Source: Mobula hypostoma (lineage: Eukaryota). From it: a DNA stretch of 64,000 bases. Where the stretch lies: the NCBI RefSeq assembly GCF_963921235.1, contig NC_086097.1, positions 87,050,001 to 87,114,000 of the forward strand, in the 5' to 3' direction. Both the position numbers and the translations under genes were made by a program. The first letter of the stretch is position 1. Each line of letters begins with the position of its first letter. Under the pieces are notes generated by a model that worked only from the letters and a program-made list of their open reading frames with translations, searched no databases and was not told where the DNA came from. Below are positions 6,550 to 46,305 of this stretch, one piece after another.

Positions 6550-6765
6550 AGTCTTTCTTCTCCAGCCCTTGACCTTTTCCACCCATCTGGCTACGTCCAT
6601 CACCTTCCAGCTAGCCTCTTTGCCCTCCCCCCATCTTTATATTCTGGTGCCTTTCCCCTTTCTTCTCAGTCCTGAAGAAGGATCTTGACATGAAACGTCA
6701 ACTATTTATTCTTTTCCATAGGTGCTGCCTGACCTGCTGAGTTCCTCCAGCATTTTGAGTGCTAC
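6550..6765 (+). mobile_element. Penelope-like terminal repeat with degenerate hammerhead (6667-6703)
   Basis: cagtc-CTGAAGA-aggatcttgacat-GAAAC-GTC-aact, followed by GCTGCCTGACCTGCTGAGTTCCTCCAGCATTTTG. Confidence 0.75.
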
Positions 6766-7794: not shown

Positions 7795-8580
7795 CAAAGA
7801 TTCAAAGGTTCATTTATTATCAAAGTAGGCAACTTGGAAATTCTTCTTCTCCAGATAACCATGAAACCAAGAAAGAAAAGAACAGCGGAACGATCATTAA
7901 CCCCCAAACCCCTCTTCCTCGCGCAGAAAATGAACAAAAGTGGAATAGGCACATTGACCCCCAAATCTCCCTCCTATGCACACACAAAAAAAGAGGAAGA
8001 ACCGGCCTAAAATACAGAATATAAAAAAACTATAAGACTGAAAAAAGTCTATAGGCCAAGTCCATATCCAAAACGCAGAAAACCTGGATAATATTCTATG
8101 GGTCCAGCAGCAGGCCTTTCCCTCTCCAGAGCACAGCGATCCCACCAGCGATCAAAAGGCAGTCTCCCCTCTCTATAGCGGAGTGATTCCCCTAGCGATA
8201 AAAAGACAGACAGCTGGCGCTTACCTTCCAAATTCGCCTTCATGTTTCAACCCTCCTCCTTGCTTTAATCGGCGAACAATGGGAGCTTTACTCAGTGAAC
8301 TGGAGTTGAACATTGGCATGCACCCTGTCCCGTAGCCTTCTCACCTCGAGTTTCGCTTACACAGCCGCTGCCTCCTGGAATCCTCTGGGAGACTGCAAAG
8401 CGCTGAAACAACCAAATAATCTCCAAACTGCAAATCACGGGCTCCGCAGGTCCAGAATCATGCTCAAGATGAAAAGCAAAATGTAAAAGGCATAACAGAA
8501 ATGAAATTTATGTTTCCATAATCTATCCGGAAGATGTTGACCGAAGGAGCATTGTACACAGGCACCATCTTGGCCAGAAT
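7795..8580 (-). mobile_element. Unclassified non-autonomous retroelement
   Basis: On the minus strand it starts GGCCAAGATGGTGCC and ends AATAAATGAACCTTTGAA; weakly related segments at about 9945-10250 and 14075-14515. Confidence 0.4.
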
Positions 8581-8724
8581 GACTTTGAACCTTGACGGTG
8601 CAGGATGAGCAGAAATCCTCTCTATCAGAGACAGAAATTGTTGCTTCCTGATGCAGTCTCCTTTCCATGGTCCCTACTTCTATCTGGGTGATGAAAAAGC
8701 TAAACCAAACTTTTCAACCATGAT

Positions 8725-8881
8725 CAACAGAAAGTCTATAGATGCTGGGAATCCAAGCAACACACACAAAATGCTGGAGGAACTCAGCAGGCCAGGCAGC
8801 ATCCATGGAAAAAAGTATAGTCGACGTTTCGGCCTTTCAGCAGGACTGGAGAAAAGAAAGCTGAGGAGTAGATTTGGAAGG
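8725..8881 (-). mobile_element. Short PLE terminal-repeat insertion with a 14-bp TSD
   Basis: TTTTCAACCATGAT at 8711-8724 and 8882-8895; contains a stem-II-deleted hammerhead variant at 8818-8848. Confidence 0.85.
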
Positions 8882-11800
8882 TTTTCAACCATGATTTTGT
8901 GTTTAGCTCTGAAAACAGTTTGCACCAATAAGACTTCTCAATTCAATCTCTGTAACACACCCAACTTTTGATTCAGTCATTCACTGGATGTGGATGTCTT
9001 AACTCCCACCCCACCTCCGGGTGCTGTTCTTTAACCTATAAAGGCCTTACCCACAGGAATTCCTTCTCATAGACTTCCTTTCAAATTTATCAATCCTTTC
9101 TAATACCTGCTGCTTTGTTCAAGCATTTTTCCATTTGAACTGATACCCTTTTTGAGTGCTGTGTTTTTTTTAGCACACTAAGGTGTTTTAATATTTATGA
9201 AGTGCAATATTATAATGATTGTTGAAGGTGAAATGGTGACTGCTTAAAGTGTGGTTGCAATTCTTGCAAATGTCAGTGCAGGCATTACTGTTATAGGTTA
9301 CGTGAAATACATTTGTGAAAATGAGTATTTCTGATGCAGTGTTGTTTGTTGCAGCTGCAAATGTATTAAGATTAGTGTACATGTATTGCGTAGGTGTGAG
9401 AAATAAATATTTAAGATTTAGGTATGTTTACTCCTAACAAAGTTGTATTTAGAATCAACTACAAGTGATTAGGAAATATATGTAAGCCTTGTTGAAGATG
9501 CAAGTGTATTGTGAGCATGTATGATGTGTTTTAGATTACTGCTGGAGGAAGGATAAGAAGGTTTATGTATTTTGAATCTTTCGGTTATAGACTTGATTCA
9601 TGCAGAAGTTGATGTAGATGCCTGGTGAAATCAAAATTGATCCAGTGATATGAAACGAGCACACGGTGGCAGTCTTCTACCACTTCACTACACTTCACAT
9701 GGCAAAAAATTAAAACCAATGCAGGACAAACTTTAATAATGCCAATAGACAGGCAAAATGATTACTTGACAACTATTTATGCACCTCTTTTATTTCAGAA
9801 ATAAATTACAAACTTATGAAAAATACATATTCTTTAACTATGTTCAGTTATTTTTGCAAGATCTCTGGTATCATGCTGTGGCCACCCTTAGATGCTGGTT
9901 CTGTGTGGAAAATTTACTGGTGATGGAAAAATATTTGTACTTTCAATGGTTCAGTGGTTCCATTGATATCAGAGAATGTATACAATATACATCCTGAAAG
10001 TTTTACTCTCCATAGACATCTACAAAAACAGAATAGAACCCCAAAGAATGAATGACAGAAAAAAAACATTAGAACCCCAAAACCTCCCACCCCCTCCCAT
10101 GAACAAGCAATGGTAAAGCATCAATCCTCCCCTTCCCCCACTTCTTTCAGCAGGAAGCATCAGCACCCATCACCCATCAAGCAAACAATAGCAAAGCCCC
10201 CAAAGAGAGGCCATGATCTGCAATCCAACAAAAACTATTGTTCATCGAATTGATGTGACGGAGGAAAGGGAGGTTGGCTAACAAATAGAAAAAGCTTGGA
10301 GACAGTGCAAAAAGGAGGATAGGCAGGTGGTAGAGAAGGGACACGCACAGACCGGTGGTTTGAGATGTGTCTATTTTAATGCGAGGAGTATGAGGAGCAA
10401 AGCGGATGAGCTTAGAGCGTGGATCAGCACTAGGAGCTATGATGTTGTGACGTGCAGGGGCAGGAATGGCTACTTCAAGTGCTAGGCTTTAGGTGTTTCA
10501 GAAGGGACAGGGAGGGAGGCAAAAGAGGTGGGGGTGTGGCACTGCTGATCAGAGATCGTTTCACAGCTGCAGAACAGGAGGAAGTCATGGAGGGGTTGTC
10601 TACAGAGTCTCTGTGGGTGGAAGTTAGGAATAGGAAGGGTCAATAACTCTACTGGGTGTTTTTTATACACCACCCAATAGTAACAGGGACATTGAGGAGC
10701 AGATAGGGTGACAGATTCTGCAAAGGTGTAATAATAACAGGATTGATGTGGAGGATTTCCCAAATATTGATTGGCATCTCCCTAGAGTGAAGGGTTTAGA
10801 TGGCGTGGAGTTTGTTAAGTGTGTTCAGGAAGGTTTCTTGACACAATAAATAGATAAGCCTACAAGAGGAGAGGCTGTACTTGATCTGGTATTGGGAAAT
10901 GAACCTGGTCAGGTGTCAGGTCTGTCAGTGGGAGAGCATTTTGGAGATCGTGATCTCAATTTTATCTCCTTTACAATAGCATTGGAGAGGGATAGGAATA
11001 GACAAGTTACAGAAATGTTTAATTGGAGTAAAGGGAAATATGAGGCTATCAGGCAGGAACTTGGAGGCATAAATTGGAAAGAGATGTTCTCAGGGAAACG
11101 TATGGAAGAAATGTGGCAAATGTTCAAGGGATATTTGCGCGGGGTTCTGGATAGGTATGTTCCAATGAGACAGGGAAAGGATGGTAGAGTACAGGAACCA
11201 TGGTGTACTAAGGCTATTGTAAATCTAGTCAAGAAGAAGAGTTTACAAAAGGTTCAAAAAACTAGGTACAGATAGAGATCTAGAAGATTATAAGGCCAGA
11301 AGGAAGGAGCTTAAGAATGAAGTTAGGAGAGTCAGAAGAGGCCATGAGAAGGCCATGGTGGACAGGATTAAGGAAAACCCCAAGGCATTCTACAAGTATG
11401 TGAAGAGGATAAGATGTGAGAGAATAGGACCAATCAAGAGTGACAGTGGAAGTGTGTGTGGAACCGAAGGAGATAGTAGAGGTACTTAATGAATACTTTG
11501 CTTCAGTATTCACTACGGAATAGTATCTTGGCGATTGTAAGGATGACTTGCAGCAGACTGAAAAGCTTGAGCATGTAGATATTAAGGAAAAGGATGTGCT
11601 GGAGCTTTTGGAAAGCATCAAGTTGGATAAGTCACCAAGACCGGACAGGATGTACCCCAGGCTACTGTGGGAAGTGAGGGAGGAGATTGCTGAGCCTCTG
11701 GCAATGATCTTTGCATCATCAATGAGGATGGGAGAGGTTCCAGAAGATTGGAGGGTTGTGGATGTTATTCCCTTATTCAAGAAAGGGAGTAGGGATAGTC

Positions 11801-12956
11801 CAGGAAATTATAGGCCATTGTGTCTTACTTCAGTGGTTGGTAAGTTGATGGAGAAGATCCTAAGAGGCAGGATTTATGACATTTGGAGAGGCATATTATG
11901 ATTAGGAATAGTCAGCATGGCTTTGTCAAAGGCAAGTCTTGCCTTATGAGCCTGACTGAATTTTTTTGAGGATGTGACTAAACACATTGATGAAGGTAGA
12001 GCAGTAGATGCAGTGTATATGGATATCAGCAAGGCATTTGATAAGGTACTCCATGCAAGGCTTACTGAGAAAGTAAGGAGGCATGGGATCCAAAGGGACA
12101 TTGCTTTGTGGATCCAGAACTGGCTTACCCACAGAAGGCAAAGAGTGGTTGTAAATGGGTCATATTCTGCATGGAGGTTGGTGACCAGTGGTGTGCCTCA
12201 CAGATCTGTTCTGGGACCCCTACTCTTTGTGATTTTTGTAAATGACCTAGATGAGGATGTAGAGTGTTGAATTAGTAAATTTGCTGATGACACAAAAGTT
12301 GGGGGTGTTGTGGATAGTGTGGAGGGCTGTCAGAGGTTACAGTGGAACATTGATAGGATGCAAAAGTGGGCTGAGAAGTGACAGATGGAGTTCAACACAA
12401 ATAAGTGTGAGGTGGTTCATTTTGGTAGGTCAAATATGATGGCAGAATATAGCATTAATAGTAAGACTCTTGGCAGTGTGGAGGATCAGAGGGATCGTGG
12501 GGTCCGAGACCATAGGACACTCAAACTGCTACGGAAGTTGACTCTGTGGTTAAGAAGGCACATGGTGCATTGGGCTTCATCAACCATGGGATTGAATTTA
12601 AGAGCCGAGAGGTAATGTTGCAGCTATATTGAACCCTGGTCAGACCCCACTTAGAGTACTGTACTCAATTCTGGTCGCCTCACTACAGGAAGGATGTGGA
12701 AACCATAGAAAGGGTGCAGAGGAGATTTACAAGGATGTTTTCTGGATTGGGGAGCATGCCTTATGAGAGTAGGTTGTGTGAACTGGGCCTTTTCTCTTTC
12801 TTCCCGGACCTCCTGTCTCATGATCCTCTCGTATCCCTTTTGCCAATCACCTGTCCAGCTCTTGGCTCCATCCCTCCCCCTCCTGTCTTCTCCTATCATT
12901 TTGGATCCCCCCCTCCCCCTCCAACTTTCAAATCTCTTACTCACTCTTCCTTCAGT

Positions 12957-12994
12957 TAGTCCTGACGAAGGGTCTCGGCCTGAAACGTCGACTG
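12957..12994 (+). ncRNA. Minimal type I hammerhead ribozyme motif
   Basis: tagtc-CTGACGA-agggtctcggcct-GAAAC-GTC^gactg. Stem I is AGTC/GACT, the core is CUGANGA/GAAA/GUC, and the palindromic ACGT replaces stem III. Confidence 0.75.
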
Positions 12995-13108
12995 TACCTC
13001 TTCCTAGAGATGCTACCTGGCCTGCTGCGTTCGTCTTGAAATCCCAGCATCTGCAGAATTCCTGTCGTTTGCGTTTTTAAATTCACTACTGCAAAGCCTC
13101 TTCCGGTG

Positions 13109-13273
13109 ATGCCTACACCGAAGAAGTTTAGATCCTCTCTTCGACGGGAGTTCAGTGAAACCATCTCTCACTGCTCCCCATCCGTAATTTCTTTGGCTCT
13201 TCAACTTTTCGACCACGTTTTGACTCAGACTCACTATCACAGCCATATATCCTTTCTTGGAATGTGCCGCTAA
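13109..13273 (+). CDS. 54-aa mini-ORF: PLE ORF N-terminus fused to the ORF's terminal codon
   Basis: MPTPKKFRSSLRREFSETISHCSPSVISLALQLFDHVLTQTHYHSHISFLGMCR*. It ends CCGCTAATGCCCC, identical to the end of the GIY-YIG ORF at about 35206-35218. Translation is not shown. Confidence 0.5.
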   Translation: MPTPKKFRSSLRREFSETISHCSPSVISLALQLFDHVLTQTHYHSHISFLGMCR

Positions 13274-13564
13274 TGCCCCACCTCCCCCTCACACCCCATC
13301 TGTTACTTATTTTTATACACACATTCTTTCTCTCACTCTCCTTTTTCTCCCTCTGTCCCTCCGAATATACCCCTTGTCCATCCTCTGGGTCCCCCCCCCT
13401 TGTCTTTCTTCCCGGACCTCCTGTCCCATGATCCTCTCGTATCCCTTTTGCCAATCACCTGTCCAGCTCTTGGCTCCATCCCTCCCCCTCCTGTCTTCTC
13501 CTATCATTTTGGATCTCCCCTTCCCCCTCCCACTTTCAAATCTCATACTCACTCTTCCTTCAGT

Positions 13565-13602
13565 TAGTCCTGACGAAGGGTCTCAGCCTGAAACATCGAC
13601 TG
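13565..13602 (+). ncRNA. Minimal type I hammerhead motif (second tandem copy, GTC changed to ATC)
   Basis: tagtc-CTGACGA-agggtctcagcct-GAAAC-ATC^gactg. Confidence 0.65.
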
Positions 13603-15284
13603 TACCTCTTCCTAGAGATGCTGCCTGGCCTGCTGTGTTCACCAGCAACTTTGATGTGTGTTGCTTGAAATCCCAGCATCTGCAGAATTCCTGTTGTTTT
13701 TGAAGGATGAGAGGTGACCTGATAGAGGTGTATAAGAAGAGGTATTGATCATGTGGATAGTCAGAGGCCTTTTCTCAGGGTTGAAATGGCTGGCACAAGA
13801 AGGCATAGTTTTAAGGTTCTTGGAAGTAGGTACAGAGGAGATGTCAGGGTAAGTTTTTACGCAGAGGGTGGTGAGTGGGTGGAATGGGCTGCCGGCAGCG
13901 GAGGTGGATGTGGAAACGATAGGGTCTTTTAAAAGTCTCCTGGATAGTTACATGGGGCTTAGAAAAATAGAGGGCTATGGGTAAAGCCTAGGTAGTTCTA
14001 AGGTAAGGACATGTTCGGCACAGCTTTGTGGGCCGAAGCACCTGTATTGTGCTGTAGGTTTTCTATGTTTCTATAATTCAACATTCCACAGGCTCTCTCT
14101 CACCAACAAGGGGCAGAGAGGTGTCACCCGGGGGGGCGGGGCGGGGGGAATCCATATTACAGTCTGGTGCATCACTTTTATTTTGAGTTTCTCTGACTTG
14201 AGAATCGGCAGCAAACTCTTCCCCACCATTGGAAGAAAGAGAGAGAGTGAGAGCAATCATCGATCAACAGAGATCTCTCACAGCTGATCCACCATTTGCA
14301 ATGTTCTGTTTCTCTCATGATGCCTCAGTTGGCGACACTGGCATGGAATTGGCCCATCCACAGAGCTGCAGGGCATCACCCTGTCTGAATCCTTGGGATA
14401 TCAAAAAATAGCTGGTGATTGAGTCCGGGAGTAGGAACCACCACTGTCAAGAAACAGAGTTTGAGTGCAGATGTGGATCACAAACTCTGACAGAACACCA
14501 TCCACCTCGAAATGCTGTTTTTCTGTAGTATTAGCTTTCTGAAGTTATTATCCGAAATCTAAATTGGCTGTTCTCATTATCTTAATTGCCTAGAATCTAA
14601 TTTACTTTAAATAATTGTTACACATACATTGGCAATTCAGTCGTATGGCAGCAAAATTCTCAAGCGCAAGTTATAAAGTGGAACTTAAAGGAACTTTGCC
14701 TTGTTCTCAATGCCACTACTGAGACCATAAAGGAAAATAGTAGTTGTCTTGGAGCAGGGCCAGGTGTGAAAAGATTGTATGGAAAGGAAGTCCTGAAGAT
14801 TGAAGATTGGAAACATGATTAGAATCTAGAGGTGTGGTGTAGGAAGCCTGCATGGGGTCTGGGATGTGCACGGAGTGAGGTTCTGCACTTGATCAGGACT
14901 TAGAGGATCAAGAGTATTTAGATATCAGAATCCGTTGGGTGTGTGACTATTGGTGAGGTGGTTGTTGTGTGAAAAGTAGACAGGAATGTAGGCTGAAAGG
15001 TTTGGTCCTGAGAATCTGATAAAAATAAAGTGTACCATGAAGAGGATGAGGTCCATGCAGGGACAGTAATTAATTAATTAATTAACTTAATTAAAGGGGA
15101 TGCACCTGAATCAGGCCCCCAGCATTTGGCCAGGACCTGCTTGGGAAGGCCTCCTGTAAATACACTATCTTTGCATTCGTTAAATGACATTATTTCATTT
15201 TTCATTTCGCTTTCACTCTTTCGCACGATGGTGGGGGAGAGTTTGCTGCTGATTCTCGAGTCAGAGAAACTTTAAAAAGCAACA

Positions 15285-17203
15285 AAGTACCGTTAAGCGA
15301 GCAATAAAGAAAGGGAAGATAGATTATGAAAATAAACTAGGACAAAATATAAAAGTGGATAGTAGAAGTTTTTATAATTGTATAAAGCAGAAAAGGGTGA
15401 CAAAAGAGAACGTAGATCCCTTGGAGGACGAGAAGGGGGAATTGATATTGGGTAATGAAGAAATGGCCGAGGCTTTGAATGACTATTTTGGTTTTGGTCT
15501 TCATGGTGGAGGACACATCTAACATGCTAAAGAGAGATGTTATGGATACGATGGGAGGTGAGGACCCCAAAACAATAGCTATCACTAAAGAGGTAGTGCT
15601 GAGCTAACTTGTGGGCCTGAAGATAGACATGTCCCTGGTCCTGATGGAATGCATCCCAGGGTACTGAAAGAAATTGCAGAAGTTATAGAAGAAGCTTTGG
15701 AGTTGATTTATCAAAATCCTCTGGACTCGGGGCAGGTACTGGTGGATTGGAAGACAGTGAATGTCACGGCACTGTTCAAAAATGGATGTAGGCAAAAGGC
15801 AGATAACTATAGGCCAGTTAGTTGAATACCTGTAGTTGGGAAAATGCTTGAAGCTATCATTAAAGAAGAAATAGCGACGTATCTGGAAAGAAATGGATCC
15901 ATCAGGCAGATCCAGCATGGACTCAGTAAAGGAAGATCCTGTTTGACAAACTTACTGGAGTTCTTTGAGGATATAACGAGTGCAGTGGATAGAGGGGAAC
16001 AGGTGGATGCTACTTACTTGGATTTCCAGAAGGCATTCGATAAGGTGCCGCATAAAAGACTTACCATAAGGTAAGGATGCATAGAGTTGGGGGTGATGTA
16101 TTAACATGGATAGAGGATTGGTTATCTAATAGAAAGCAGAGTGTTGGGATACATGGGTGTTACTCTGGTTGGCAATCAGTGGTGAGTGGTGTGCCACAGG
16201 GATTGGCGCTGGGCCCGCAACTGTACACAGTATACATTGACGATCTGGATGAGGGGACCGAGTACAGTGTATCTAAGATTGTTGATGATACTAAATTGAG
16301 TGGAAAAACGAATTATGCAGAAGATACGGAGTGTCTGTAGGCAGATATAGATAGTGAGTGGACATGGGTCTGGCAGATGGCAGATGGAATACAATGTTGA
16401 TAAATGCGAGGTCATCCACTTTGGAAGGAAAATGAAAGAGCAAACTATTATTTAAAAATTGCAGCATGCTGCTGTGCAGAGGGTCTTGAGAGTGCTGGTG
16501 CATGAATCACAAAAGGTTGGTTTGCAGTTACAGCAGGCTATTAAAAAGGCAAATGGAATGTTGGTCTCCATTGCTAGAGGAATTGAATTTAAGAGCAGGG
16601 AGATTATGCTGCAACTGTGCAGGATACTGGTGAGGCCACATATGGAGTACGGCATGCAGTTTTGGTCTGCTTACTTGAGGAAGGATATACTGAATTTCGA
16701 GTTGGTGCAGAAGAGGTTCACCAGGTTGATTCCAGAGATGAAGTGGTTAGACTATGAGGAGAGGTTGAGTCGCCTGGGGCTGTACTTTCTGGAATTCAGA
16801 AGAATGAGAGGAGATCTTAAAGAAACAAATAAAATTATGAAAAGGATATTCAAGATAGAGGCAGGAAAGTTGCTTCCACTGATAGGTGAGAATGAAATAG
16901 GAGACATAGCCTCAAAAATCGGTGGAGTAGATTAAGGACGAGATCAGGAGGAACTACTTTTCCCAGAGAGTGGAGAACCTGTGGAATTCTCTGCACAGTG
17001 AAGCAGTAGATGCTACCTTGGTAAATATAGGTTGTGATAGATATTTGTATGGTAGGGGAAGTAAGGGTTATGGGGAAAGGGCAGGTAGGTGGAGATGAGT
17101 CCATGGTCAGATCAGCCATGATCTTATTGATTAGTGGAGCAGGCCAGATGGCCAGTACGGGCCAGATGGCCTACTCCTGCTCCTATTTCTTGTGTTCATA
17201 TGT
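15285..17203 (+). mobile_element. CR1 LINE, 5'-truncated, different subfamily
   Basis: ORF fragments GRSCLTNLLEFFE, YLDFQKAFDKVPH, SGVPQG and IVDDTK, followed by a CR1 3' UTR. Confidence 0.9.
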
Positions 17204-17229
17204 TCAGTTCCAAACTGCTAAAAAATGTA

Positions 17230-17325
17230 ACAATAAACACAACACACAGGAGGAACTCAGCTATTCAGCCAGCAACTATAGAGAATTAAAAAGTTGACGT
17301 TTCCGGCCAAGACCCTTCATCAGGA
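17230..17325 (-). mobile_element. PLE terminal repeat fragment with hammerhead core (17293-17324)
   Basis: Reverse complement reads c-CTGATGA-agggtcttggccg-GAAAC-GTC-aact. Confidence 0.65.
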
Positions 17326-18294
17326 AAATATATTTCTGCATTCAATTGTTCTAAATACAGGCAGAGTTAATTCCTGAATTTGATTTGGTAATCTTAATGA
17401 GCATATGAAGAAAACATATCCACAAAGCTGTTAGGTAAAAAGAGAGGGAATTTGGGGAAAATGAAGGTGTAGGAACAGCATCCTATCTACAAGTAAATGA
17501 AGCATGTAATACAGAGGAACTCCTTTCTGATCACTGACTGGGAAAAAGCATTTGAATTTGTATTGAATGAGGTTTCCTCTTCGACCTGATATATGGTATA
17601 AGTTACAACTTAAGCATTGGTTGCTTGAGAACAAAACTATATGGCCTTAGTTCACTATGGAATTTTACTCAGGAAGGTGGAGACATATTTATTGTCCAAT
17701 AAGTTGATGATTAAATTCAAAAATTGTCCCAATAGTTAACAAATTTCACGTCACATGCTGGTGATAATAAACCTGATTCTGATTCTGAACAGCTTCAAAT
17801 GTTTAAATACATAAAATATGCTCTTTTATAAATACCAGAATTTGGAGTACATCTATTTTGTAATTGTGTCTTGGGAAAGAATTTTAGACTCTGATCTCAT
17901 TGAGTTTTAACCATTGAGAAAGTAACTGTGCTATTGTAAACTTTATATTTTGACATGCAGGAAGCAAAAGTAACAATAACAAGAGAGAAAGGATTTCAAC
18001 AAGGAGACGGGGAAGAACGTCAATACAAGGAGAGGTAGAGAAAGAAAAGGGAGCTGACAATCAAATAAATTGGCTTAAGTCTATGAAATGCATTTTCTTG
18101 AACCTTTCTGGTTGTTGATCTTTAGATATATATGATGTCAAAATCCAACATATTACTACAATAATTTCACGTACATCACTTCTTTTTGTAAGACACCCAA
18201 ATGCACATCACCGGGCTTCAATTAAAGAAAATCTGGAAATGAAAACTAAAGGAATGACATAGGGAAATGACAACAAATCCAGTGAAAGAGATAA

Positions 18295-19174: not shown

Positions 19175-21925
19175 GGAATATAGAACACTATAGCACAGTA
19201 CAAGCCCTTCAGCCCATGATGTTGTGCCAACTTTATAACCTACTCTGAGGCCAATCTAACTTTTTCCTCCTACATAGCCCTCCTTTTCCCATCATCCTAT
19301 CTAAGAGTTTCTTAAACATCACCAATGTATCTGAATCTACTACCACCCCTGCAGGGTGTTCGACACACCGTTGCTCTCTTTGTAAAAAAAATTACTTCTT
19401 TCATCCCCCCCATATTTTCCTCCAATCATCTTATGCACCCTCGTATTAGCCATTTCCACTCTGAGAAAAAGACTCTGGCTAGCCACTTAATCTATTCCTC
19501 TTATCATCTTGTATGCTTTTATCAAGTCACCTCTCCTCCTCCTTTGTTCCAAAGAGAAAAGCCTCATCTCAATTTATCCTCATAAGACATGCTCTCTAAT
19601 CCAGGCAGCATCCTGGTAAATCTTCTCTCCACCCTCTCTAAAGCTTCCACATCCATACTGCAATAAGGCAACCAGAACTGAACAGTATTCAAAGTATGGT
19701 CTAACCAGAGTTTTATAGATCTGGAACACTATCTCACAGCTCTTGAACTCAGTTCATGACTAATGAATATGCCTTTTCAACAACCCTGTCAACTTGTTTG
19801 ACAAATTTGAGAGATTTATGTACTTGGACCCCAAGGTTCCTCTGTTCCTCAATATTGCTAAGCATCCTGCCACTTCCCCTGTATTCTGCCTTCAAAATCA
19901 ACCTTCCAAAGTGAATCACTTCACACATTTCTGGGTTCATCTCTATCTGCCAATTTGCAGTTCAGCCTTGCATTCTATCAATGGTCCATTGTAACCTATA
20001 ACAAGATTCTACAGTATCCACAACTCAACCAACTTTTGTGTCATCTGTAAACTTACTAACCGACCCTGCCACTTCTTCATCCAAGTCATTTATAAAACTC
20101 ACAAAGAGCAGAGGTCCCAGAACAGATCTGTGCAGAACAATATTGGTCACAGGCCTCCAGGCAGAAAATGCTGCATCTACAACCACATGTGACTAATACA
20201 TTGATGGAGGAAGAGCAGTAGATGTAGTGTCTATGGATTTCAGCAAGGCATTTGATAAGGTACCCCATGCAAGACTTATTGAGAAAGTAGGAAGGCATGA
20301 GATCCAAGGGGACATTGCTTTGTGGATCTAGAATTGGCTTGCCCACAGAAGGCAAAGAGTGGTTGTAGACATGTCATATTCTGTATGGAGGTCGGTGACC
20401 AGTCGTGTGCCTCGGGGATCTGTTCTGGGACCCCCTACTCTTTGTGATTTTTATAAATGACCTGGTTGAGGAAGTGGAGGGATGCGTTAGTAAATTTGCC
20501 TGTGACAGAAAGGTTGGGGGTGTTGTGGATAGTGTGGATGGCTGTCAGAGGTTACAGCGGGACATTGATAGAATGAAAAACTGGGCTGAGAAGTGGCAGA
20601 TGGAGTTCAACCCAGATAAGTGTGAGGAGGTTCATTTTGGTAGGTGAAATATGATGGCAGAATATAGTATTAATGGCAAGACTCTTGGCAGTGTGGAGGA
20701 TCAGAGGGATCTTGGGGTCCAAGTCCATAGGACACTCAAAGCTGTTGCTCAGATTGACTCTGTGGTTAAGAAGGCATGCAGTGCACTGGCCTTCATCAAT
20801 CATGGAATTGAGTTTAGGAGCCGAGGGGTAATGTTGCAGCTATATAGGACCCTGGTCAGACCCCATTTGGAGTACTGTGCTCAATTCTGGTCGCCTCACA
20901 ACAAGAAAGATGTTGAAACCATGGAAAGAGTGCAAAGGAGATTTACAAGGATGTTGCCTGGATTGTGGAGTATGCCTTAAGAGTATATGTTGAGTGTACT
21001 TGGCCTTTTCTCCTTGGAGCGATGGAGGATGAGAGGTGACCTGACAGAGGTGTATAAGATGATGAGAGGCATTAATTATGTGGATAGTCAGAGGCTTTTT
21101 CCCAGGGCTGAAATGGCTAGCATGAGAGGGCACAGTTTTAAGGTGCTTGGAAGTAGGTACAGAGGAGATGTCAGGGGTAAGTTTTTTACGCAGAGAGTAG
21201 TCAGTTGGCTGCCGGTGACAGTGGTGGAGACAGAAACAATAAGTTCTTTTACGAGACTCCTGGGTAGGTGCATGGACCTTAGAAAAATAGAGGGCTATGG
21301 GTAACCCTAGGTAATTTCTAAGGTAAGGAAATGTTCCACACAGCTTTGTGGGCTGAAGGGCCTGTACTGTGCTGTAGGTTTTCTATGTTTCTATGCTAAC
21401 CATCCTGTTCCTTCTATGGTCTAGTTAATTCTGAATCCACACAGCCAAGTTTCTCTGAATCCTTTGTGTCCTGACTTTCTGAATGAACCTACCATGGGGA
21501 ACCTTATCAGGCACCTTACTAAAATCTATCCACACCACATCGGCTGCTCTATCTTAATCAATGTGCTTTGTCACATCATCAAAGAATTGAATCAGGTTTG
21601 TGAGGCAAGTCCTGCCCTTCACAAAGTCATTGCTGACTATTCCTAACTGGACTATGTATCTGCAAATGCTTGTAAGTTCTATCTCTATGAATCCTCTCCA
21701 ATAACTTGGCCACCACTGAAGTTGAATATACTGGCCTATAATTCCCAGGGTTATCTCCATTCCTTTTCTGAAAAAGTAAATTACATTTACCACCCTCCAA
21801 TCATTTTGTACTACTCCTGTGACCAGTGAGGATGCAAAGATCACCATCAAAAGCACAACAATCTCTTTCCTCACTTCCTGTAGTAACCTTGGAGATAGGC
21901 CTCTGGCCCCAGGGATTAATATATC
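19175..21925 (-). mobile_element. CR1 LINE on the minus strand, split by an oppositely oriented CR1
   Basis: Minus-strand ORF fragments NPEMCEVIHFGR (19749-19940) and GRTCLTNLIQFFDDVT (21554-21874) flank the insert and are collinear. Confidence 0.85.
20187..21395 (+). mobile_element. 5'-truncated CR1 (same family as 10255 and 41352) nested in the minus-strand CR1
   Basis: Closely similar to 11972-14073; ends TTCTATGTTTCTATG. Confidence 0.88.
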
Positions 21926-28988: not shown

Positions 28989-31900
28989 TCATCTAAAGTC
29001 TGCTCGCATTGGGGTTATATATTCAATCCATTTATTCCAGATTTGATAAAATGTTTCTTTTTGAGTTCTCAGGGAGTAAGTCAACTTTTCCATTTTAAAT
29101 ATTTCCAAGATAATTTCGTACCAATCTTCTAATGTAGGTGATATTGGATTTAGCCATTTTCTAGTGATTGATTTCTTACTTGCCGCTAAGAGGGCCTGCA
29201 GCAACTTTATATCTTCCTTCTGTTCAAGGAACAATACATGCCCCAAATAGAGCGTCTCAAAGTTCAGAGGTATCTGGGACCTAAGTACCTTAACTAATGT
29301 TCTATGAATACCTTCCCAAAATAGACTTAATTTAGGGCAATCCCAGAAAATATGAAAATGATTTGCCTCCTTGGAGCCGCACCTTCTCCAACACATCACA
29401 TTTGTATCTTTATATTTTTCCTGATATGGGGTCTTGAAGTATCTTATAATGTTTTTCCAACAATGTTCTCTCCAAGTCAAAGAATTAGTCGAGGACCATT
29501 GAAAGCTACAGATTTTCCCCCAAGCCTCCTCTGAAAGTACCAACCCCGCTTCTTTCTCCCACTTCTCTTTAATATACAGTGTATTTACATTTTTAGCATG
29601 GGAGAGTGCATTATATAGGCGAGAAACTGATTTACTAGGTATTGAACTGCAAGCCGAATTCAGAATCTTGAAAAATTCTAATTCTACTGTTGATATATAG
29701 GTCTGTATATCTACAACTCTGGTTAACATAGTTTCATATTTGAAGGTACCTAAAAAAGTCATTATGTTCTAGGCCATGTTTGTCCTGCAGGATTTGGAAA
29801 CTTTGTAATACTCTTTTATCTATAAATGAGAGGTAGGTTGTAAGACCTTTCTTTATCCATAGCTCAAATCTTTTATCTCCTCTGTTGGGAAGGAATTCGG
29901 TATCATATGCACACCACCTAAAGAGTTTTAACATGTTATTAATTCCACATGAATTAACCACCTTCTGCCATACTTTTAATGTAAGATTTATCCAAGCATT
30001 ATTAAATTTTTCCAACTGGGCCATTAATCCTTTGTCAGCTATTGAGGCCTGAAGAGGAAAACTGTCAACTAATCCAAATTCTATTTCCTTCCATCTAGCC
30101 TTATATTCCCTATTACACCAATATAACAGAGAGGTTATCTGTGAGGCATAAAAATAATTTCTCAGGCAAGGAAGAACCATACCTCCTCCTTCCTTCCCTA
30201 ACTGTAAGGTGTTATATCAAATTCTAGGTTTCCTTCCTTGCCAAATGAAGCGGGAAATCCATTTGTCCCATTCCCTGAATTGATTATCATCCACCTCCAC
30301 TGGTAAAGTACGGAAAAGATATAATAACCGAGGAAGAATATTCATTTTTATAGTATTTATCCTTGAATTTAAACTTAAAAAGGGGATAAGATTCCATCTA
30401 TGCATATCTGCTTTTATCTCTGCGATTAATGGCCCATAATTTACCTGTGACAGTGTTGAAAGATCCTTCGGCAGGGTTATTCCTAAATATTTTAATGATT
30501 TAGCTTCCCACTTAAGATCGTATGTATCCTGCAATTTTTTGGATGGTGTATAATTTAGGGACATAACCTGCGTTTTCTTTACATTTATTTTATAACCTGA
30601 TATTTTCCCAAAGTCATCCAACAGTGTAAACAATCCTATAAATGATTTTTCTGGTTCACTCAGATAGACCAAAACATCATCTGCGAATAACGCCACTTTC
30701 TGTTCAATCCCTGCCACCTTGATACCTTTTACGATTTCGCTCTGTCTTATTAGTTGGGCAAGTGGTTCAATATATAGCGCAAAAAGGAGAGGAGAAATTG
30801 GGCATCCCTGTCTAGTGCCTCTCTCTAAAATGAAGGAGTCAGAGAGGTCCCCATTTATCTTAATTCGGGCTGTAGGGCTGTCATATAGAGTCTGAATTAC
30901 TTGAATAAACCTTTCTTGAAAGCCGAATCTTCCTAACGCTCTGTATAGGAATGCCCAACTAACCGAATCAAAAGCTTTCTCAGCGTCCAATCCTACTACC
31001 ATTGTCTCTGTCTCGTTCTTATTAACCTGTTCTCATATGTGCAGAGTTCTCCTTATGTTGTCCTGTGTTTGTCTTTGTTGAATAAATCCAGTCTGGTCTA
31101 AATGGATTAGGCCAGGTAAAAGCTTTTCCAATCTGCGCGCTAATATAGATGTAAATAGTTTGTAATCTAAATTAAGAACACCAATTGGCCGATAATTGCC
31201 ACATTCTAGTTTATCTTTACCCTCTTTAGGAATAACTGAAATAATCGCTTCTCTCCAGGAAGGTGGAGTTTCTCCTCTCTGCAAGATCCAATTAAAGGTG
31301 TTAAGTAATGGGGCTAACTGTGTCTTCAGGGACTTGTACCACTCTGAGGTAAACCCATCAGAACCCGGGGACTTTCCAGCCTTTAACCTAGAGATGGCCA
31401 CGTTCAGTTCTTTGACAGTTACTGGTTCTAATAAACTTTCATTTTGTAAATCTGTAAGTTTAGGTATATCTAAAAAATTCAATACACTGTCTATATAGGG
31501 CTCATTGGGGGCCTGGGGTTGGGAGTACAGCTCTCGATAATATGTTTCAAAACTCTCTTGAATTTTCCCTATTGTACTCTCCACAAGCTTTGTCTTTGGA
31601 TTCTTTATTTTATGAATTGTATTGTCTGCTTGTTGTTTTCGTAATTTATATGCTAATAATCTAGCTGATTTACCTCCTACTTCATAATTCTTTTGTCTCA
31701 GGTAAAGAAAATTTCTTTGAGTTTCCAACGTATAAATATCATCAATTTCACTTTGCAATTTCCTAATTTCCTGTTTTCGATTTGAATTACTTTTGTTGCT
31801 ATCTACAACTTGAAGTTGTTTTAATTTTCCTTGAAGGTCTGCTAATTTTTGTGCATTGATTTTTTTCATGTGAGTAGTAATGGAAATAATTTTCCCTCTC

Positions 31901-32778
31901 AGTACAGCTTTCAATGTATCCCATAAAATCACTGGTGATGTTTCTCCCGTGTCATTAAGGTCTAGATATTCTTTGATTTCTCCCCTTAATCTCTCCATTA
32001 CTTTCGGGTTATTGAGTATATGTGAGTTTAGCCTCCATAGTGTTTTCCTCATTTTCCTTTCCAGGATTAGAGACATAGAGACTGGGCTATGATCCGACAG
32101 ATCAATTGTTGCAATATTACAGTTTTTTATCCTGAGTCTATCTGTATTAAAGATAAAGAAATAGTCTATCCTTGAATAGGCTGAATGAGGGAAAGAGTAA
32201 TATGTATAATCTTTACTAGTAGGGTGTAATTCCCTCCAAGCATCTATAATTCCCAACTCCTCCATCAATGAATTCACTTTCCGAGTCAAAGGTTTATTCT
32301 GAGTAACTATTCTTGAAGAATCTAATATAGGATTTAATCTAATATTAAAAACCCCTCCACAAATTACTACCCCTCGAGAACTGACCATTAGGTCAAAAAT
32401 GTGTCTATAAAATGACCATTCACTACCTGGAGGAGCATAAACATTCAGCAATGTTATTTCTGTACCTTCTATTCTTCCTGTGATTTTTACAAACCGTCCT
32501 TCTTTGTCTCTAGTCTCTGAAATATGTTCATAATTAAGAGTACTTGATATTAAAGTAGCTACCCCTCTTTTGTGACTCAATTTATATGATGAATAAAATA
32601 CATGCTTAAAGCCCATTCTTTTTAATTTTCCATGTTCAGATTGGCTCATATGTGTTTCCTGGAGGAAAGCTATTTGTGCCCTCTCTTTTTTCAATTTAGA
32701 CATAATCTTATTTCTTTTAATTGGATTCAAAACCCCATTAACATTATAGGAAATTATTTTTACCAATTCAGTTTGCAT
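28989..32778 (-). pseudogene. L1 ORF2 (APE endonuclease, RT, CCHC), disrupted
   Basis: Motifs SYNVNG, FLQETH, SRIDYF, SDHSP, LDAEKAFD, GTRQGCPISP, LFADD and CWRRC..HFHIFWDC. In-frame TGA stops at about 31033, 30217 and 29734, and a frameshift near 29695. Confidence 0.93.
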
Positions 32779-33140
32779 TTTTCTCTAGTAGAAAAAAAGC
32801 ACTCTCCTTTTCTAACCAAACAGTAAGCAATCCCTTCTCAACAGTAAACCAAGACATATAACCACACCCTAGACATTTCTGAACGTATAACATTTGAAAA
32901 TTTTTCCCGACTTCCCACAGTGAGGCCTGAGCACCGACCCGCCTCAGTTCAGAGGGATAACCTCTATCTTCACCCTGTGTTAGAGGGCCCTCAGCAGTTT
33001 GAATAATCATAGAGAATTTTCTCCTACTTATGTCTCGACCATATTGCTATCATTCAAGTTATTCCGCCTAGTTTATTTTCAGTTACCAGTTTTCATTTTA
33101 CTTTTAAGTCCGATTTACTCTTTTCAGTCATTTCTCTTAA

Positions 33141-34127
33141 TTAATCTGTATTCTCTGTACATTCACGTCTGAATATTTGCAGCTTTTCCTTGTAGTTTGA
33201 CACTCTGGTTCGAGTGGAGCGTCCTCGCCCCACTAACTGCCACGACTTCTGCCGAATCCCCTCCAGTAGCGACTCCGATTGGGTGATAACTTTAATAGGT
33301 AGTCCCCGGTCCGCCAGGTCCAACGTTGCCTTCTCCACCGTAGCGTAAGTTTTTGTCCCTTCGTCGTAAAAGACTCTCAGCCGAGCTGGATACAGGGTCT
33401 GGAATCTGATGTTGTTTTCCTTCAGGACTCTCTGTGTTTCCGTATATTCCTTCCGTCTGGCAAGAATCCCCAGTGCGTAGTCGTGGTCTAAACTGATTTT
33501 GCAGTTGTTCCACATGAAACCTTTCTTTTGCCATGCTCTTTTAAGCACCTCTTCCTTCGTTCTGTAACTGAGAAATCTGATCAGAATCGATCTGGGCTGG
33601 GCGCCTGCCGGAGGCTGTGGTGCCAACGCGCGGTGAGCCCTTTCTATCTGTAGGTCTTTTGCGGCCGGTATATCAAGGTTCTCTCTAAGCAGCTTCTCCA
33701 CGAAGGGAATCATCAATCTGGGTTTACCTTCGGTTCCTTCGGGAACTCCGTAGATCCTCACATTTTCCTTTCTCGAGCGGCCTTCTTGATCTATTAGTTT
33801 CCACTGGAGCTGGTCTTGTAGCTTCAGCATTTCTGCTATCACTTCCTCGGCGTTTTGTAGCTTCTCTTCAATTCCAACAATCCTCGCTTCGGCTTCATCT
33901 ATCCGCGAGTTAGTTTTTACTATTTCTCCTTTAATATCTTCCAGCTGTTTGCTGTTATCTTGTCGGAACTCACGAATCTCTCCAAGAATCAAAGACAGAG
34001 TCACCGATTCCCCCTCATTATCTCCGTCCTGGCTTGCCGTGGGGGAGCTAGGCCCATCGCCTTGCTGCATCTCTTTATGTTTATCAGCTTTCGAAGCGGA
34101 CTTTTTATTCTTGTTCTTAGACATCAT
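33141..34127 (-). CDS. L1 ORF1p-like RNA-binding protein (328 aa, open)
   Basis: Coiled-coil region, then EGRSRKENVRIYGVPEG, IERAHRAL, PRSILIRF and LYPARLRV. Confidence 0.9.
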   Translation of the reverse strand: MMSKNKNKKSASKADKHKEMQQGDGPSSPTASQDGDNEGESVTLSLILGEIREFRQDNSKQLEDIKGEIVKTNSRIDEAEARIVGIEEKLQNAEEVIAEMLKLQDQLQWKLIDQEGRSRKENVRIYGVPEGTEGKPRLMIPFVEKLLRENLDIPAAKDLQIERAHRALAPQPPAGAQPRSILIRFLSYRTKEEVLKRAWQKKGFMWNNCKISLDHDYALGILARRKEYTETQRVLKENNIRFQTLYPARLRVFYDEGTKTYATVEKATLDLADRGLPIKVITQSESLLEGIRQKSWQLVGRGRSTRTRVSNYKEKLQIFRRECTENTD

Positions 34128-34276
34128 CCTTGCCCCTTTTATTAATATAGTTATGCAATATTAAGTATTTGTCTAAATTCAATTTTGGGGCAGTTTACCT
34201 TCTTTTTTGTCGAGAGACCTTTTCCTTACGCCGCCATTCCCTTGATGACCCGGAAGTCCATCGAAAGTGTAGTTTC

Positions 34277-34390: not shown

Positions 34391-34918
34391 TAAACTGATC
34401 CAACAGAATCCATGGAAATTACTTAATCCTTCACAGCATTGAGGTATGAGGTGATTATGCATGAACAGTAAGTGTGCATGGCAATGTCTTTGAGACTATA
34501 GTTCTATTCGTATCAATCATTATTTAGACCTCCTAAGCTTCTCCTGGTAAGTTATATGCTATCATTAATGTTGAAGTTGACCCTTTCTCATTCTCCTGCG
34601 GGTGGAGAAAGAAATGACGCGTACTTTCTGTACGTCTTCAGAGCCTGAGGAAATGTGTATTCAAAATTGAAAGGCAGCTACTGTTGTAATGTTGGCAAAT
34701 CCAGCAGACAATTTTCTCACATCACACTGTCATAAACACCAGTGTAATAATGGCCCATTCACAAGGTGAAGTTCTTTGTTAGTCATCAGCTCTAATCACT
34801 GTTTGTACTTGCCTTCACATACTCTGTGCTGATGGTGTCAAAATGAGCAAGACCGGTTGCCAATAGTGTTGTACAGTTTAGCACTAGTGGTGAAAGGCAA
34901 TGTTCTCAGTCGGCTGGG

Positions 34919-35212
34919 GTGATATACTGCATCCGGTGCTCCCGATGTGGCCTTCTATATATTGGCGAGACCCGGCGCAGACTGGGAGACCGCTTTGCTG
35001 AACACCTACGCTTTGTCCGCCAGAGAAAGCAGGATCTCCCAGTGGTCACACATTTTAATTCCACATCCCATTCCCATTCTGACATGTCTATCCACGGCCT
35101 CCTCTACTGTAAAGATGAAGCCACATTCAGGTTGGAGGAACAACACCTTATATTCCATCTGGGTAGCCTCCAACCTGATGGCATGAACATTAACTTCTCT
35201 AACTTCCGCTAA
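34919..35212 (+). pseudogene. PLE GIY-YIG endonuclease domain (C-terminus of the PLE ORF, no genuine start)
   Basis: VIYCIRCSRCGLLYIGETRRRLGDRFAEHL..HF..EEQHLIFHLGSLQPDGMN. Confidence 0.9.
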
Positions 35213-35505
35213 TGCCCCACCTCCCCCTCGTACCCCATCCGTTATTTATTTCTATACACACATTCTTTCTCTCACTCTCCTTTTTCTCCCTCTGTCCCTC
35301 TGACTATACCTCTTGCTCATCCTCTGGGTTCCCCCCCCCCTTGTCTTTCTCCCCGGACCTCCTGTCCCATGATCCTCTCATATCTCCTTTGCCAATCACC
35401 TGTCCAGCTCTTGGCTCCATCCCTCCCCCTCCTGTCTTCTCCTATCATTTTGGATCTCCCCCTCCCCCTCCCACTTTCAAATCTCTTTCTAACTCTTCCT
35501 TCAGT

Positions 35506-35543
35506 TAGTCCTGAGGAAGGGTCTCGGCCTGAAACGTCGACTG
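35506..35543 (+). ncRNA. Minimal type I hammerhead ribozyme motif
   Basis: tagtc-CTGAGGA-agggtctcggcct-GAAAC-GTC^gactg. Confidence 0.72.
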
Positions 35544-35997
35544 TACCTCTTCCTAGAGATGCTGCCTGGTCTGCTGCATTCACCAGTAGCTTTGATGTGT
35601 GTTGCTTGAATTTCCAGCATCTGCAGAATTTCTGTTGTTCTCTATCAAATCTGCTTTGGTGTCATTGGTTGGTGAGTGGATAATTAGAGGTCAATCTCAG
35701 TAATCCCTTAGTGCTGAGAACAGCCTCTCTAGGAAATCGCGATCTGGATTTGGAGCACAGCTATTGACATATTTAGCATATTTAGAAGTGAGAAAGATGC
35801 TTATTATTAGGCAGGGAATTGGGTGCCAGTGGCCACATAAAAGGTCCTGGTGAGGCTAATTATTCACAAACAATCCTAGCAAGATTAATGTCCAAGGAAA
35901 TGGCAGACAATCTGAATGCTGGACATTGACACAGGCTCTGGACAAGACTAGGATGCTGGGCCTGGGCTAGGACATGGACAAGAAACATGGAACCCGG

Positions 35998-39207: not shown

Positions 39208-39713
39208 TGTAAACACAAGGAATTCTGCAGTGCTGCAAATTCAAGCAACACACATCAAAGTTGCTGGTGAACGCAGCAGGCCAGGCAGCATCTCTAGGAA
39301 GAGGTACAGTCGACGTTTCGGGCCGAGAACCGTCATCAGGACTAACTGAAGGAAGAGCTAGTAAGAGATTTGAAAGTGGGAGGAAGAGGGGGAGATCCAA
39401 AATGATAGGAGAAGACAGGAGGGGGAGGGATGGAGCCAAGAGCTGGACAGGTGATTGGCAAAAGGGATATGAGAGGATCGTGGGGCAGGAGGCCCAGGGA
39501 GAAGGAAAAGGGGGAGGGGGGAGAAAACCCAGAAGATGGGCAAGGGGTATAGTCAGAGGGACAGAGGGAGAAAAAGGAGAGAGAGAGAAAGAATGTGTGT
39601 ATATAAATAAATAACAGATGGGGTATGAGGGGGAGGTGGGGCATTAGCGGAAGTTAGAGAAGTCAATGTACATGCCATCAGGTTGGAGGCTACCCAGAAT
39701 TTGCTAAAGTTTG
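39208..39713 (-). mobile_element. Penelope-like 3' end with a 13-bp TSD
   Basis: CTAAATTTTAGCA at 39195-39207 and 39714-39726; encodes ..GSLQPDGMYIDFSNFR* followed by the terminal repeat. Confidence 0.88.
39307..39344 (-). ncRNA. Minimal type I hammerhead motif
   Basis: Reverse complement reads tagtc-CTGATGA-cggttctcggccc-GAAAC-GTC^gactg. Confidence 0.65.
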
Positions 39714-45426: not shown

Positions 45427-46305
45427 TGGTACGTAACCGGCAACAATGAACATTAATCGAGACAGGTTTTATAAAAACAACCAAACACTTATTAAACACG
45501 TATAAATGACAAGGGAAAAAAAAACAAAGCAGAACTTTAACCGGAGGTTAACAGGTACGCAGTTGTTCACCAACTCGCCACTCGGCTCTGGTTCTTAAAG
45601 CGTTAAATGCGAAAACAGTTCTTAAAGCGATACAGTCAGATATAGTTCTTAAAGCGATAACTTCAAAAATCCAACCGTTTTACACATTCAATTGGGAGAG
45701 ACTTCTCTGGAGAAAGATTTCTTCACAGACGCGCCTTTACTGCCAGTTTTGTCCACAGGATTCCCGGTGCCGAAAATAAACAGTTTAAATCAACTGACCT
45801 TAAACTCCTTTTAGAGAGAAAGAACCTTTTTGCATGAACTCATTGCCCTTTTTTCAAGAGTTATCTCAATGCAGGTTCTCTCCAACGAAGACTCAATAAG
45901 GCCGATTCTTTATTAAACTGCCAAACGATGCCGACTTCTCTCGATCCTTTACTGCGATGAATTCTTCACTCTCCCTTGAAAACTGTCGGAATTGAGCAAA
46001 TTGGCACTTCCAGCCACAAATTCCCAGTCCAAATATACTGTATCTTGTAAAAGAACGCACCTTCCGTTTTAAAAATGAAACTGCGTCACAAAAACAAACA
46101 CACAACAGAAACAGAGGCACAACGTGTTCTATCTGGAAATCTACAAACTCAAAAACTAACTGTGTCACCTGAGTCGACCCTTATGTAGTCACAGGGCACA
46201 TGTCATCACGTGACCTCACATCGGTGGGAAAATCACATCAGGTGACCTCCAAAAGACCATTACATCATTCTCACAAAAAAACCAGATCTCCTTGAGCATG
46301 TAACA
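45427..46305 (-). mobile_element. Solo LTR, 879 bp
   Basis: TGGTACGT...ATGTAACA termini; 4-bp TSD GGTG at 45423-45426 and 46306-46309. Removing it restores the CR1 sequence GAGAGGTGACCTG. Strand is tentative. Confidence 0.8.

Follow-up and report, generated by a model that had tools for sequence, protein, structure and literature searches.

A two-hammerhead locus of the ray Mobula hypostoma is probably a single decayed deletion copy of a Penelope-like element

Endonuclease-bearing Penelope-like elements have been described in a partial-tandem layout, in which a truncated upstream repeat is followed by the body of the element and a tail (e.g., Pen2, Pen5, and Pen6 of Adineta vaga in PMC3846280 and Chlamys-3_cRei in PMC8557442). 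PMC8557442 also reports a Cys-rich linker between the reverse transcriptase and the endonuclease as a feature of the Neptune or Nematis clade and an internally deleted Chlamys-3_cRei copy. PMC3846280 reports a rotifer copy that lies in an element lacking long terminal repeats (non-LTR element) with a microhomology joint and without a target duplication, as well as a derivative with an internal microhomology-mediated deletion. The minimal hammerhead ribozymes of metazoan Penelope-like elements (Cervera and De la Pena 2014; PMC4209133) have a type I core, an extra nucleotide after position 9, a short helix I, and a palindromic 15.2-16.2 segment that requires a dimer. Canonical hammerheads, arranged in tandem repeats, and plentiful circular RNA define animal retrozymes (PMC7229834), which have been argued to derive from Penelope-like repeats (bioRxiv 10.64898/2026.07.22.740005). 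Here, we characterize a locus with two hammerhead motifs in a 64,000-nucleotide (nt) stretch of the Mobula hypostoma genome (NC_086097.1, positions 87,050,001 to 87,114,000, forward strand; hereafter, the window). The original prediction was that this locus may be a retrozyme-like unit of a non-autonomous family, with a transcript that is cut to a 608-nt monomer and could circularize. Our analysis indicates that it is most likely a single, decayed deletion product of a Penelope-like element.

The locus is one insertion of 903 bp, or 1.49 units, and is laid out as partial-tandem Penelope-like elements normally are (i.e., with a 5'-truncated upstream pseudo-LTR, the body, and a tail), except that the open reading frame (ORF) is deleted (Table 1). 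Its direct repeats (12792-13032 and 13400-13640 of the window) are 241 nt each, are 96% identical, and are spaced 608 nt apart. A further block of 36 nt (13035-13070 and 13664-13699) has a spacing of 629 nt because the first repeat copy lacks 21 nt. Both flanks match a single long interspersed nuclear element (LINE), which we take to be of the CR1 type and of which an uninterrupted paralogue is present at 20715-21370; the left flank encodes a decayed reverse transcriptase (RVT_1, E value of 1.4e-13 with stops read as X). Comparison of the flanks with this paralogue revealed no target-site duplication and a net removal of 9 nt, and a 2-nt TC at 12795-12796 is common to the host LINE and the left end of the insertion. 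The two repeats agree with each other at 5 positions against both of the other copies compared in the window, and they are therefore products of one insertion event; two independent neighboring insertions are ruled out by the same positions. The layout resembles that of the Adineta vaga and Chlamys copies, and the non-LTR target without duplication and the internal deletion at microhomology are likewise found in rotifer Penelope copies (PMC3846280). Compared with those published copies, the ray copy differs in having lost all but 54 codons, which is why its hammerheads are only 608 nt apart, and in having a tail of 102 nt rather than 30 to 40 bp.

The remaining 54 codons match no Pfam family, and both the reverse transcriptase and the C-terminal GIY-YIG domain are gone, as originally predicted. 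The predicted fusion of the N terminus to the last codon is also borne out. The first 53 residues align with residues 1 to 53 of longer shark proteins (eight matches were found, of which seven were looked up and scanned and six were aligned; P0029, a repetitive protein that matches on another stretch, was omitted, and P0031, which has a 72-residue extension, was not aligned). The last codon and the stop are those of the GIY-YIG-ending ORF in the two other window copies, which match the element from exactly 13267 onward (92.9% and 90.0% identity) and end 102 nt beyond the predicted cut. In public contigs, the intact element continues past 13268 in frame as L R R Q L T P V G F (hand translation), and the shark proteins continue similarly past residue 53. 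Among the matches listed, such contigs occur in three of the four sequencing runs analyzed (five in X3, two in X14, one in X12, and none in X6). Splicing is ruled out as the cause of the gap, as the left break has no GT donor and the right break has no AG before it. The exact 54-residue protein was absent from the protein collection, and word-indexed searches with the N terminus returned nothing at longer or near lengths; these negatives are weak evidence because the collection presumably holds few eukaryotic gene calls of that size. In metagenome contigs, the junction 24-mer had no match, which is uninformative for a fish repeat, and the N-terminal peptide gave one weak, unrelated-looking locus among 594 candidate stretches, which was not used.

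The parent family encodes both missing domains. GIY-YIG (PF01541) is present at 34880-35209 in the longer of the two other window copies, and ray and shark proteins with reverse transcriptase and GIY-YIG are among the 25 of 59 candidate relatives that were scored. The best named relative of that copy is P0001 of Mobula hypostoma, which is 91% identical and reads into the same 3' region. No single protein connects the N terminus to the reverse transcriptase; P0033 carries the N terminus through to a DKG-like motif. A Cys-rich linker between the reverse transcriptase and the endonuclease is visible by eye in P0001 and P0006, which gives the Penelope-like parent a Neptune/Nematis-type linker and makes Neptune and Nematis candidate clades. 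Literature passages did not bear out a proposed connection of the tail with the MER6 repeat and with the Nematis clade, which was dropped. Judged roughly from the longer proteins, the ORF sequence lost may amount to about 2.5 kb or more. Four annotated ray gene models (P0001, P0004, P0005, and P0024) hold pieces of the element ORF under host-gene names, probably as annotation carry-over. We found no paper on this ray element in the mainly open-access literature, Repbase and preprint supplements aside.

Each repeat contains one hammerhead, in which the core CTGACGA (at 12962 and 13570) is followed by an extra A, a 4-bp helix II, GAAA, and the cleavage triplet (GTC ending at C12989 in the first copy and ATC ending at C13597 in the second), all enclosed by a 5-bp helix I. 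The pattern of this core with a 4-bp helix I occurs four times in the window, each time in this Penelope-like family, and in none of 100 doublet shuffles. The original prediction of two minimal, dimer-type hammerheads 608 nt apart thus holds. A search of 11000-16000 against Rfam gave no match at an E value of ≤1, and the assignment therefore rests on the published minimal descriptor (CUGANGA, GAAA, and UH, with an additional nucleotide separating position 9 from 10.1 and a helix I of 4 to 5 bp; PMC4209133), to which both copies conform. The same source gives the G10.1-C11.1 pair as highly conserved in minimal hammerheads. Both hammerheads of the locus instead have G-U (T at 12981 and 13589), and position 11.1 is C only in the window copy at 39.3 kb. 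They also differ from the published set in their spacing (0.6 kb versus about 3 kb) and in the second copy, as the 15.2-16.2 palindrome is kept in the first hammerhead and lost in the second through a change at 13595. This loss, together with a second CpG change in loop 2 (13585), confirms the damage to the second copy that had been suspected. The original prediction had overlooked the loop 2 change, as well as the G-U pairs, the 21-nt deletion of the first copy, and the placement in a LINE with no target duplication.

In a dimer of the two hammerheads, helix III would pair ACGU with ACAU, leaving a C-A mismatch that adjoins the core for the cut at C13597 and lies one pair farther out from the core for the cut at C12989. 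The double hammerhead of copies 1 and 2 has a folding energy of -6.9 kcal/mol and that of two hammerhead 1 copies has -12.7 kcal/mol; these values express relative damage only, because even the homodimer is far from the minimum-energy fold. When the full transcript was folded, the active helices had base-pair probabilities of ≤0.004, to which we gave no weight because the folding model scores no ribozyme core. The structure of the 608-nt unit resembles that of its shuffles (z of -0.15; 8 of 20 shuffles as good) and is neutral. We also observed that the C at the variable core position lets the core of hammerhead 1 pair with its own cleavage triplet (12962-12989), which extends helix I into an inactive hairpin of -12.2 kcal/mol. 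Minimal hammerheads are described as cleaving poorly, dimers included (PMC4209133). A transcript of this locus would be at best weakly cut, more likely at C12989 than at C13597, and a 608-nt monomer or circle is expected to be rare or absent.

The two repeats have each decayed independently by about 2%. Over 235 nt, the first copy has four private substitutions and the second has five, of which three are at CpG sites and two of those are within the ribozyme. Letters that distinguish the copies include those at 13015/13623 and 13028/13636. In the N-terminal part of the ORF, 4 of 196 letters differ from 96 to 100% of the contig depth. The 21-nt deletion after the hammerhead is found in the first copy only (one of the four window copies of this segment), and the counterpart of the missing stretch in the second copy is the hairpin inside a local stem-loop. 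As this gap is private to the first copy, any unit that was copied would have been 629 nt and never 608 nt; repeated copying of a 608-nt circle would be expected to leave the gap in both repeats.

The copy number of the junction was judged on public contigs from 4 of 24 listed runs with matches to 13071-13296 at 85% likeness (16 of the 20 holding rows of the run listing had under half of the words, and none was listed as RNA). The best-matching DNA runs may stem from the sample that yielded the window. The matches listed comprise 32 of 2,143 contig pieces and 24 of 257 loose ends, and the data are assembled contigs, which cannot show RNA ends, strand, or level. Many variant contigs (1,082 in X3 and 884 in X6) cover the N-terminal part, where the summed depth is jagged and reaches tens of thousands; the lowest-depth contigs have depths of 7 to 21 in X3 and 5 to 14 in X6 among the matches listed. 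Beyond the junction, these two DNA runs have a flat depth from 13271 to 13294, at 51,525 (X3) and 33,329 (X6), and the depth in the junction bin (13263-13270) is 0.50 and 0.53 of these values, respectively. A bin at half depth is expected if contigs that contain only the 3' side begin at 13267 without spanning the junction. If they do begin there, the ceiling for junction-spanning contigs is 410 of 51,525 (X3) and 1,906 of 33,329 (X6). In a rough model in which private variants survive assembly, ten copies diverged by 2% would leave 13271-13294 free of contig ends with a probability of about 0.01. X14 has no cover past the junction, and this blank was not used as evidence. The contigs thus lean toward a junction that is single-copy or nearly so.

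We therefore regard the locus as probably one dead copy with the following history. A Penelope-like element inserted once in the 3' part of an old LINE, yielding the 5'-truncated upstream repeat, the body, and the tail. Almost the entire ORF was lost between two CC dinucleotides, presumably through either a template jump in reverse transcription or later microhomology-mediated repair, two routes that are indistinguishable here. Neutral decay of about 2% per copy followed, including the CpG changes in the ribozymes and the 21-nt hairpin deletion. The deleted unit presumably did not spread, and double cleavage would be slight or absent. The parent's layout is the source of the tandem hammerheads, which are no evidence of a new unit.

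Several points weigh against this history. The copy-number test is indirect: depth added up over contigs does not measure copy number, rare variants are lost from contigs, and the matches listed are the small share of pieces and loose ends given above. No contig could count as bridging because the reference had 30 letters to the right of the junction. A start of the 3'-only contigs one or two bases farther on would lift the ceiling to 10,633 to 17,448 (X3) and 8,191 to 12,381 (X6). X12, a probable RNA run, has a depth of 175 past the junction that is assignable to neither contig class. The ORF fusion is in frame, which has a one-in-three probability by chance. The folding energies discriminate poorly, given that the better-preserved homodimer reaches -12.7 kcal/mol versus -32.7 kcal/mol for the minimum-energy fold. 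Finally, one X12 contig (from RNA, by our guess) departs from the reference at 13266 and resumes at the counterpart of 13462, within the 3' untranslated region. It represents a different deletion with an implied unit of about 430 to 440 nt, and the closeness of its left end to the 13267-13268 junction (a few bases) may mean that the breakpoint is not random; it is a single contig of unlisted depth and could reflect a library template switch. We also note that loose ends behind 13178-13179 in X3, X6, X14, and X12 reveal a second subfamily, which has the first ORF codons in common with the element and then diverges (at 13179, 58 contigs in X3 and 58 in X6).

An unlikely alternative is that a master copy underwent the deletion and that the parent enzyme, acting in trans, copied its 629-nt RNA, which would extend from one hammerhead to the other, to a few or a few tens of loci, of which the locus would be an aged daughter that lost its 21 nt later. 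All cis parts are kept (i.e., both untranslated regions, both hammerheads, and the tail), and the intact 5' part is present in probable RNA runs. The simplest ceiling of 410, set against lowest-depth X3 contigs of 7 to 21, would still accommodate tens of similar copies, but left-side contigs with loose ends must also be covered by that ceiling and take part of it, and the flat depth over 13271-13294 is improbable under the ten-copy model. Precedents are available in putatively non-autonomous Chlamys elements such as MRC1 (PMC8557442) and in R2 SIDEs (PMC6765202), which, like the bipartite RTE derivatives (PMC7245038), keep both ends and have lost the ORF; the R2 SIDEs also keep a ribozyme, as here. 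For those elements, propagation is shown or argued, whereas it looks unlikely at this locus. A broader version, to which we give a slim chance, is that an abundant ray Penelope-like family repeatedly spawns gutted two-hammerhead units with breaks recurring near codon 53 (as at this locus and in the X12 contig) and that at least one of these units is copied in trans via circular RNA.

It is very improbable that the locus belongs to an abundant retrozyme family of the kind found in coral, mussel, and axolotl and gives rise to a 608-nt monomer and circle. The locus resembles animal non-LTR retrozymes (PMC7229834 and the bioRxiv preprint) in outline, having two same-strand type I hammerheads in a short, essentially non-coding, Penelope-related unit (about 50 to 1,000 nt without a functional protein); the spacing of 608 nt is within the published range of 51 to 972 bp, and the preprint reports retrozymes in one chondrichthyan genome with a mean of 363 bp. 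In three tested features, the locus departs from retrozymes: its hammerheads are minimal rather than canonical, its unit has a GC content of 49.5% versus a published value of under 45%, and it has no two consecutive complete units, as Tandem Repeats Finder with the published retrozyme settings (2 7 7 80 10 50 1000) found no array in 12000-14500. It also keeps an ORF remnant. The proposed amplified family with a 608-nt circle is not upheld, as the two-hammerhead layout is general to partial-tandem insertions, the insertion comprises 1.49 units, and the 608-nt length comes from a private deletion. Helices II and III are damaged, the depth arithmetic of the junction bin stands against abundance, and minimal hammerheads are poor cleavers even as dimers (in the preprint, cleavage was found for one of nine Xenopus dimers and eight were without it). 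The plant LTR retrozyme, with a type III hammerhead in its LTRs and a 4-bp target duplication, does not fit a locus with type I hammerheads and no duplication. Least probable of all is that a longer element had its two ends collapsed during assembly, which would have created the junction: although no contig piece spans the junction among the matches listed, the ends have only 2 nt in common, which is too short to collapse on, and the window letter at 13217 leaves a depth of 8.3 of 38,995 in X3, which fits one locus, even if this residue may belong to another letter.

The window contains further traces of this family and of other repeats. Older, decayed hammerhead-and-tail remnants are located at 6658, 8830 (-), 17325 (-), 54372 (-)/54380 (+), and 60620, and the pair at 54.3 kb is inverted head to head, meeting at the hammerhead. 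An 879-bp insert at 45427-46305, which resembles a solo LTR in that it has the ends TG...CA and a duplication of 4 bp (GGTG), lies inside another copy of the host LINE, some 26 nt downstream of where the Penelope-like element is inserted. A long LINE in several open stretches extends over 28989-34160 (-), with a weak ORF1-like piece (PF02994), an endonuclease, and a reverse transcriptase; an integrase core domain (PF00665) of an LTR-type element is present at 62572-63123 (-). A 70-nt inverted repeat (14181-14250 and 15207-15276) is 83% complementary, with its arms 956 nt apart.

Table 1. Features of the insertion, its host LINE, and the comparator copies (window coordinates)
Feature	Position	Strand	Basis or remark
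Whole insertion, partial-tandem Penelope-like element with internal deletion	12797..13699	+	Repeats; flanks rejoin to intact LINE paralogue 20715-21370
Upstream pseudo-LTR (3' untranslated region copy, 5'-truncated, to predicted cut 1)	12797..12989	+	96% identity to 13405-13597
Minimal type I hammerhead 1 (core 12962-12968, 5-bp helix I, extra A, 4-bp helix II with G-U closing)	12957..12994	+	Helix III half is palindromic (ACGT); cut predicted after C12989
Predicted cut 1 to start codon (5' untranslated region)	12990..13108	+	Lacks 21 nt at 13034
54-codon ORF (element ORF codons 1-53 joined in frame to its last codon and stop)	13109..13273	+	No Pfam family
Internal deletion junction (CC is the sole overlap between the ends)	13267..13268	+	Window copies 35206 and 39650 (3' side); contig loose ends (5' side)
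Full 3' untranslated region, pyrimidine-rich, to predicted cut 2	13274..13597	+	13267-13699 versus two other window copies, 92.9% and 90.0%
Minimal hammerhead 2 (private CpG changes at 13585 in loop 2 and at 13595, helix III palindrome lost)	13565..13602	+	Predicted cut after C13597
Tail past predicted cut 2, 102 nt	13598..13699	+	End register as in both other family copies (ends 35639 and 39211)
Host LINE left of insertion, decayed (reverse transcriptase remnant and downstream part)	11920..12796	+	RVT_1; paralogues
Host LINE resumes	13700..14050	+	Versus uninterrupted paralogue, net 9 nt missing
Comparator copy, 5'-truncated (GIY-YIG end, 3' untranslated region, hammerhead, tail)	34909..35639	+	Left end read by eye
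Comparator copy, shorter, 5'-truncated (C kept at hammerhead 11.1)	39211..39698	-	Left end read by eye

The locus is genuine and of an ordinary type. If it is a single dead copy, it has little import, adding a cartilaginous fish to the rotifers and algae for which such Penelope-like elements are described. The link from Penelope-like elements to retrozymes has so far been argued from co-occurrence and repeat similarity (bioRxiv 10.64898/2026.07.22.740005; PMC7229834). If a family sharing the junction or a circle did exist, it would form a direct link from an autonomous Penelope-like element to an animal retrozyme and would offer a short natural substrate on which in vivo cutting by minimal dimer hammerheads could be assessed. 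If gutted units were indeed copied in trans, they would represent a retrozyme family caught at birth, with a minimal ribozyme and an ORF stump that still reveal the parent.

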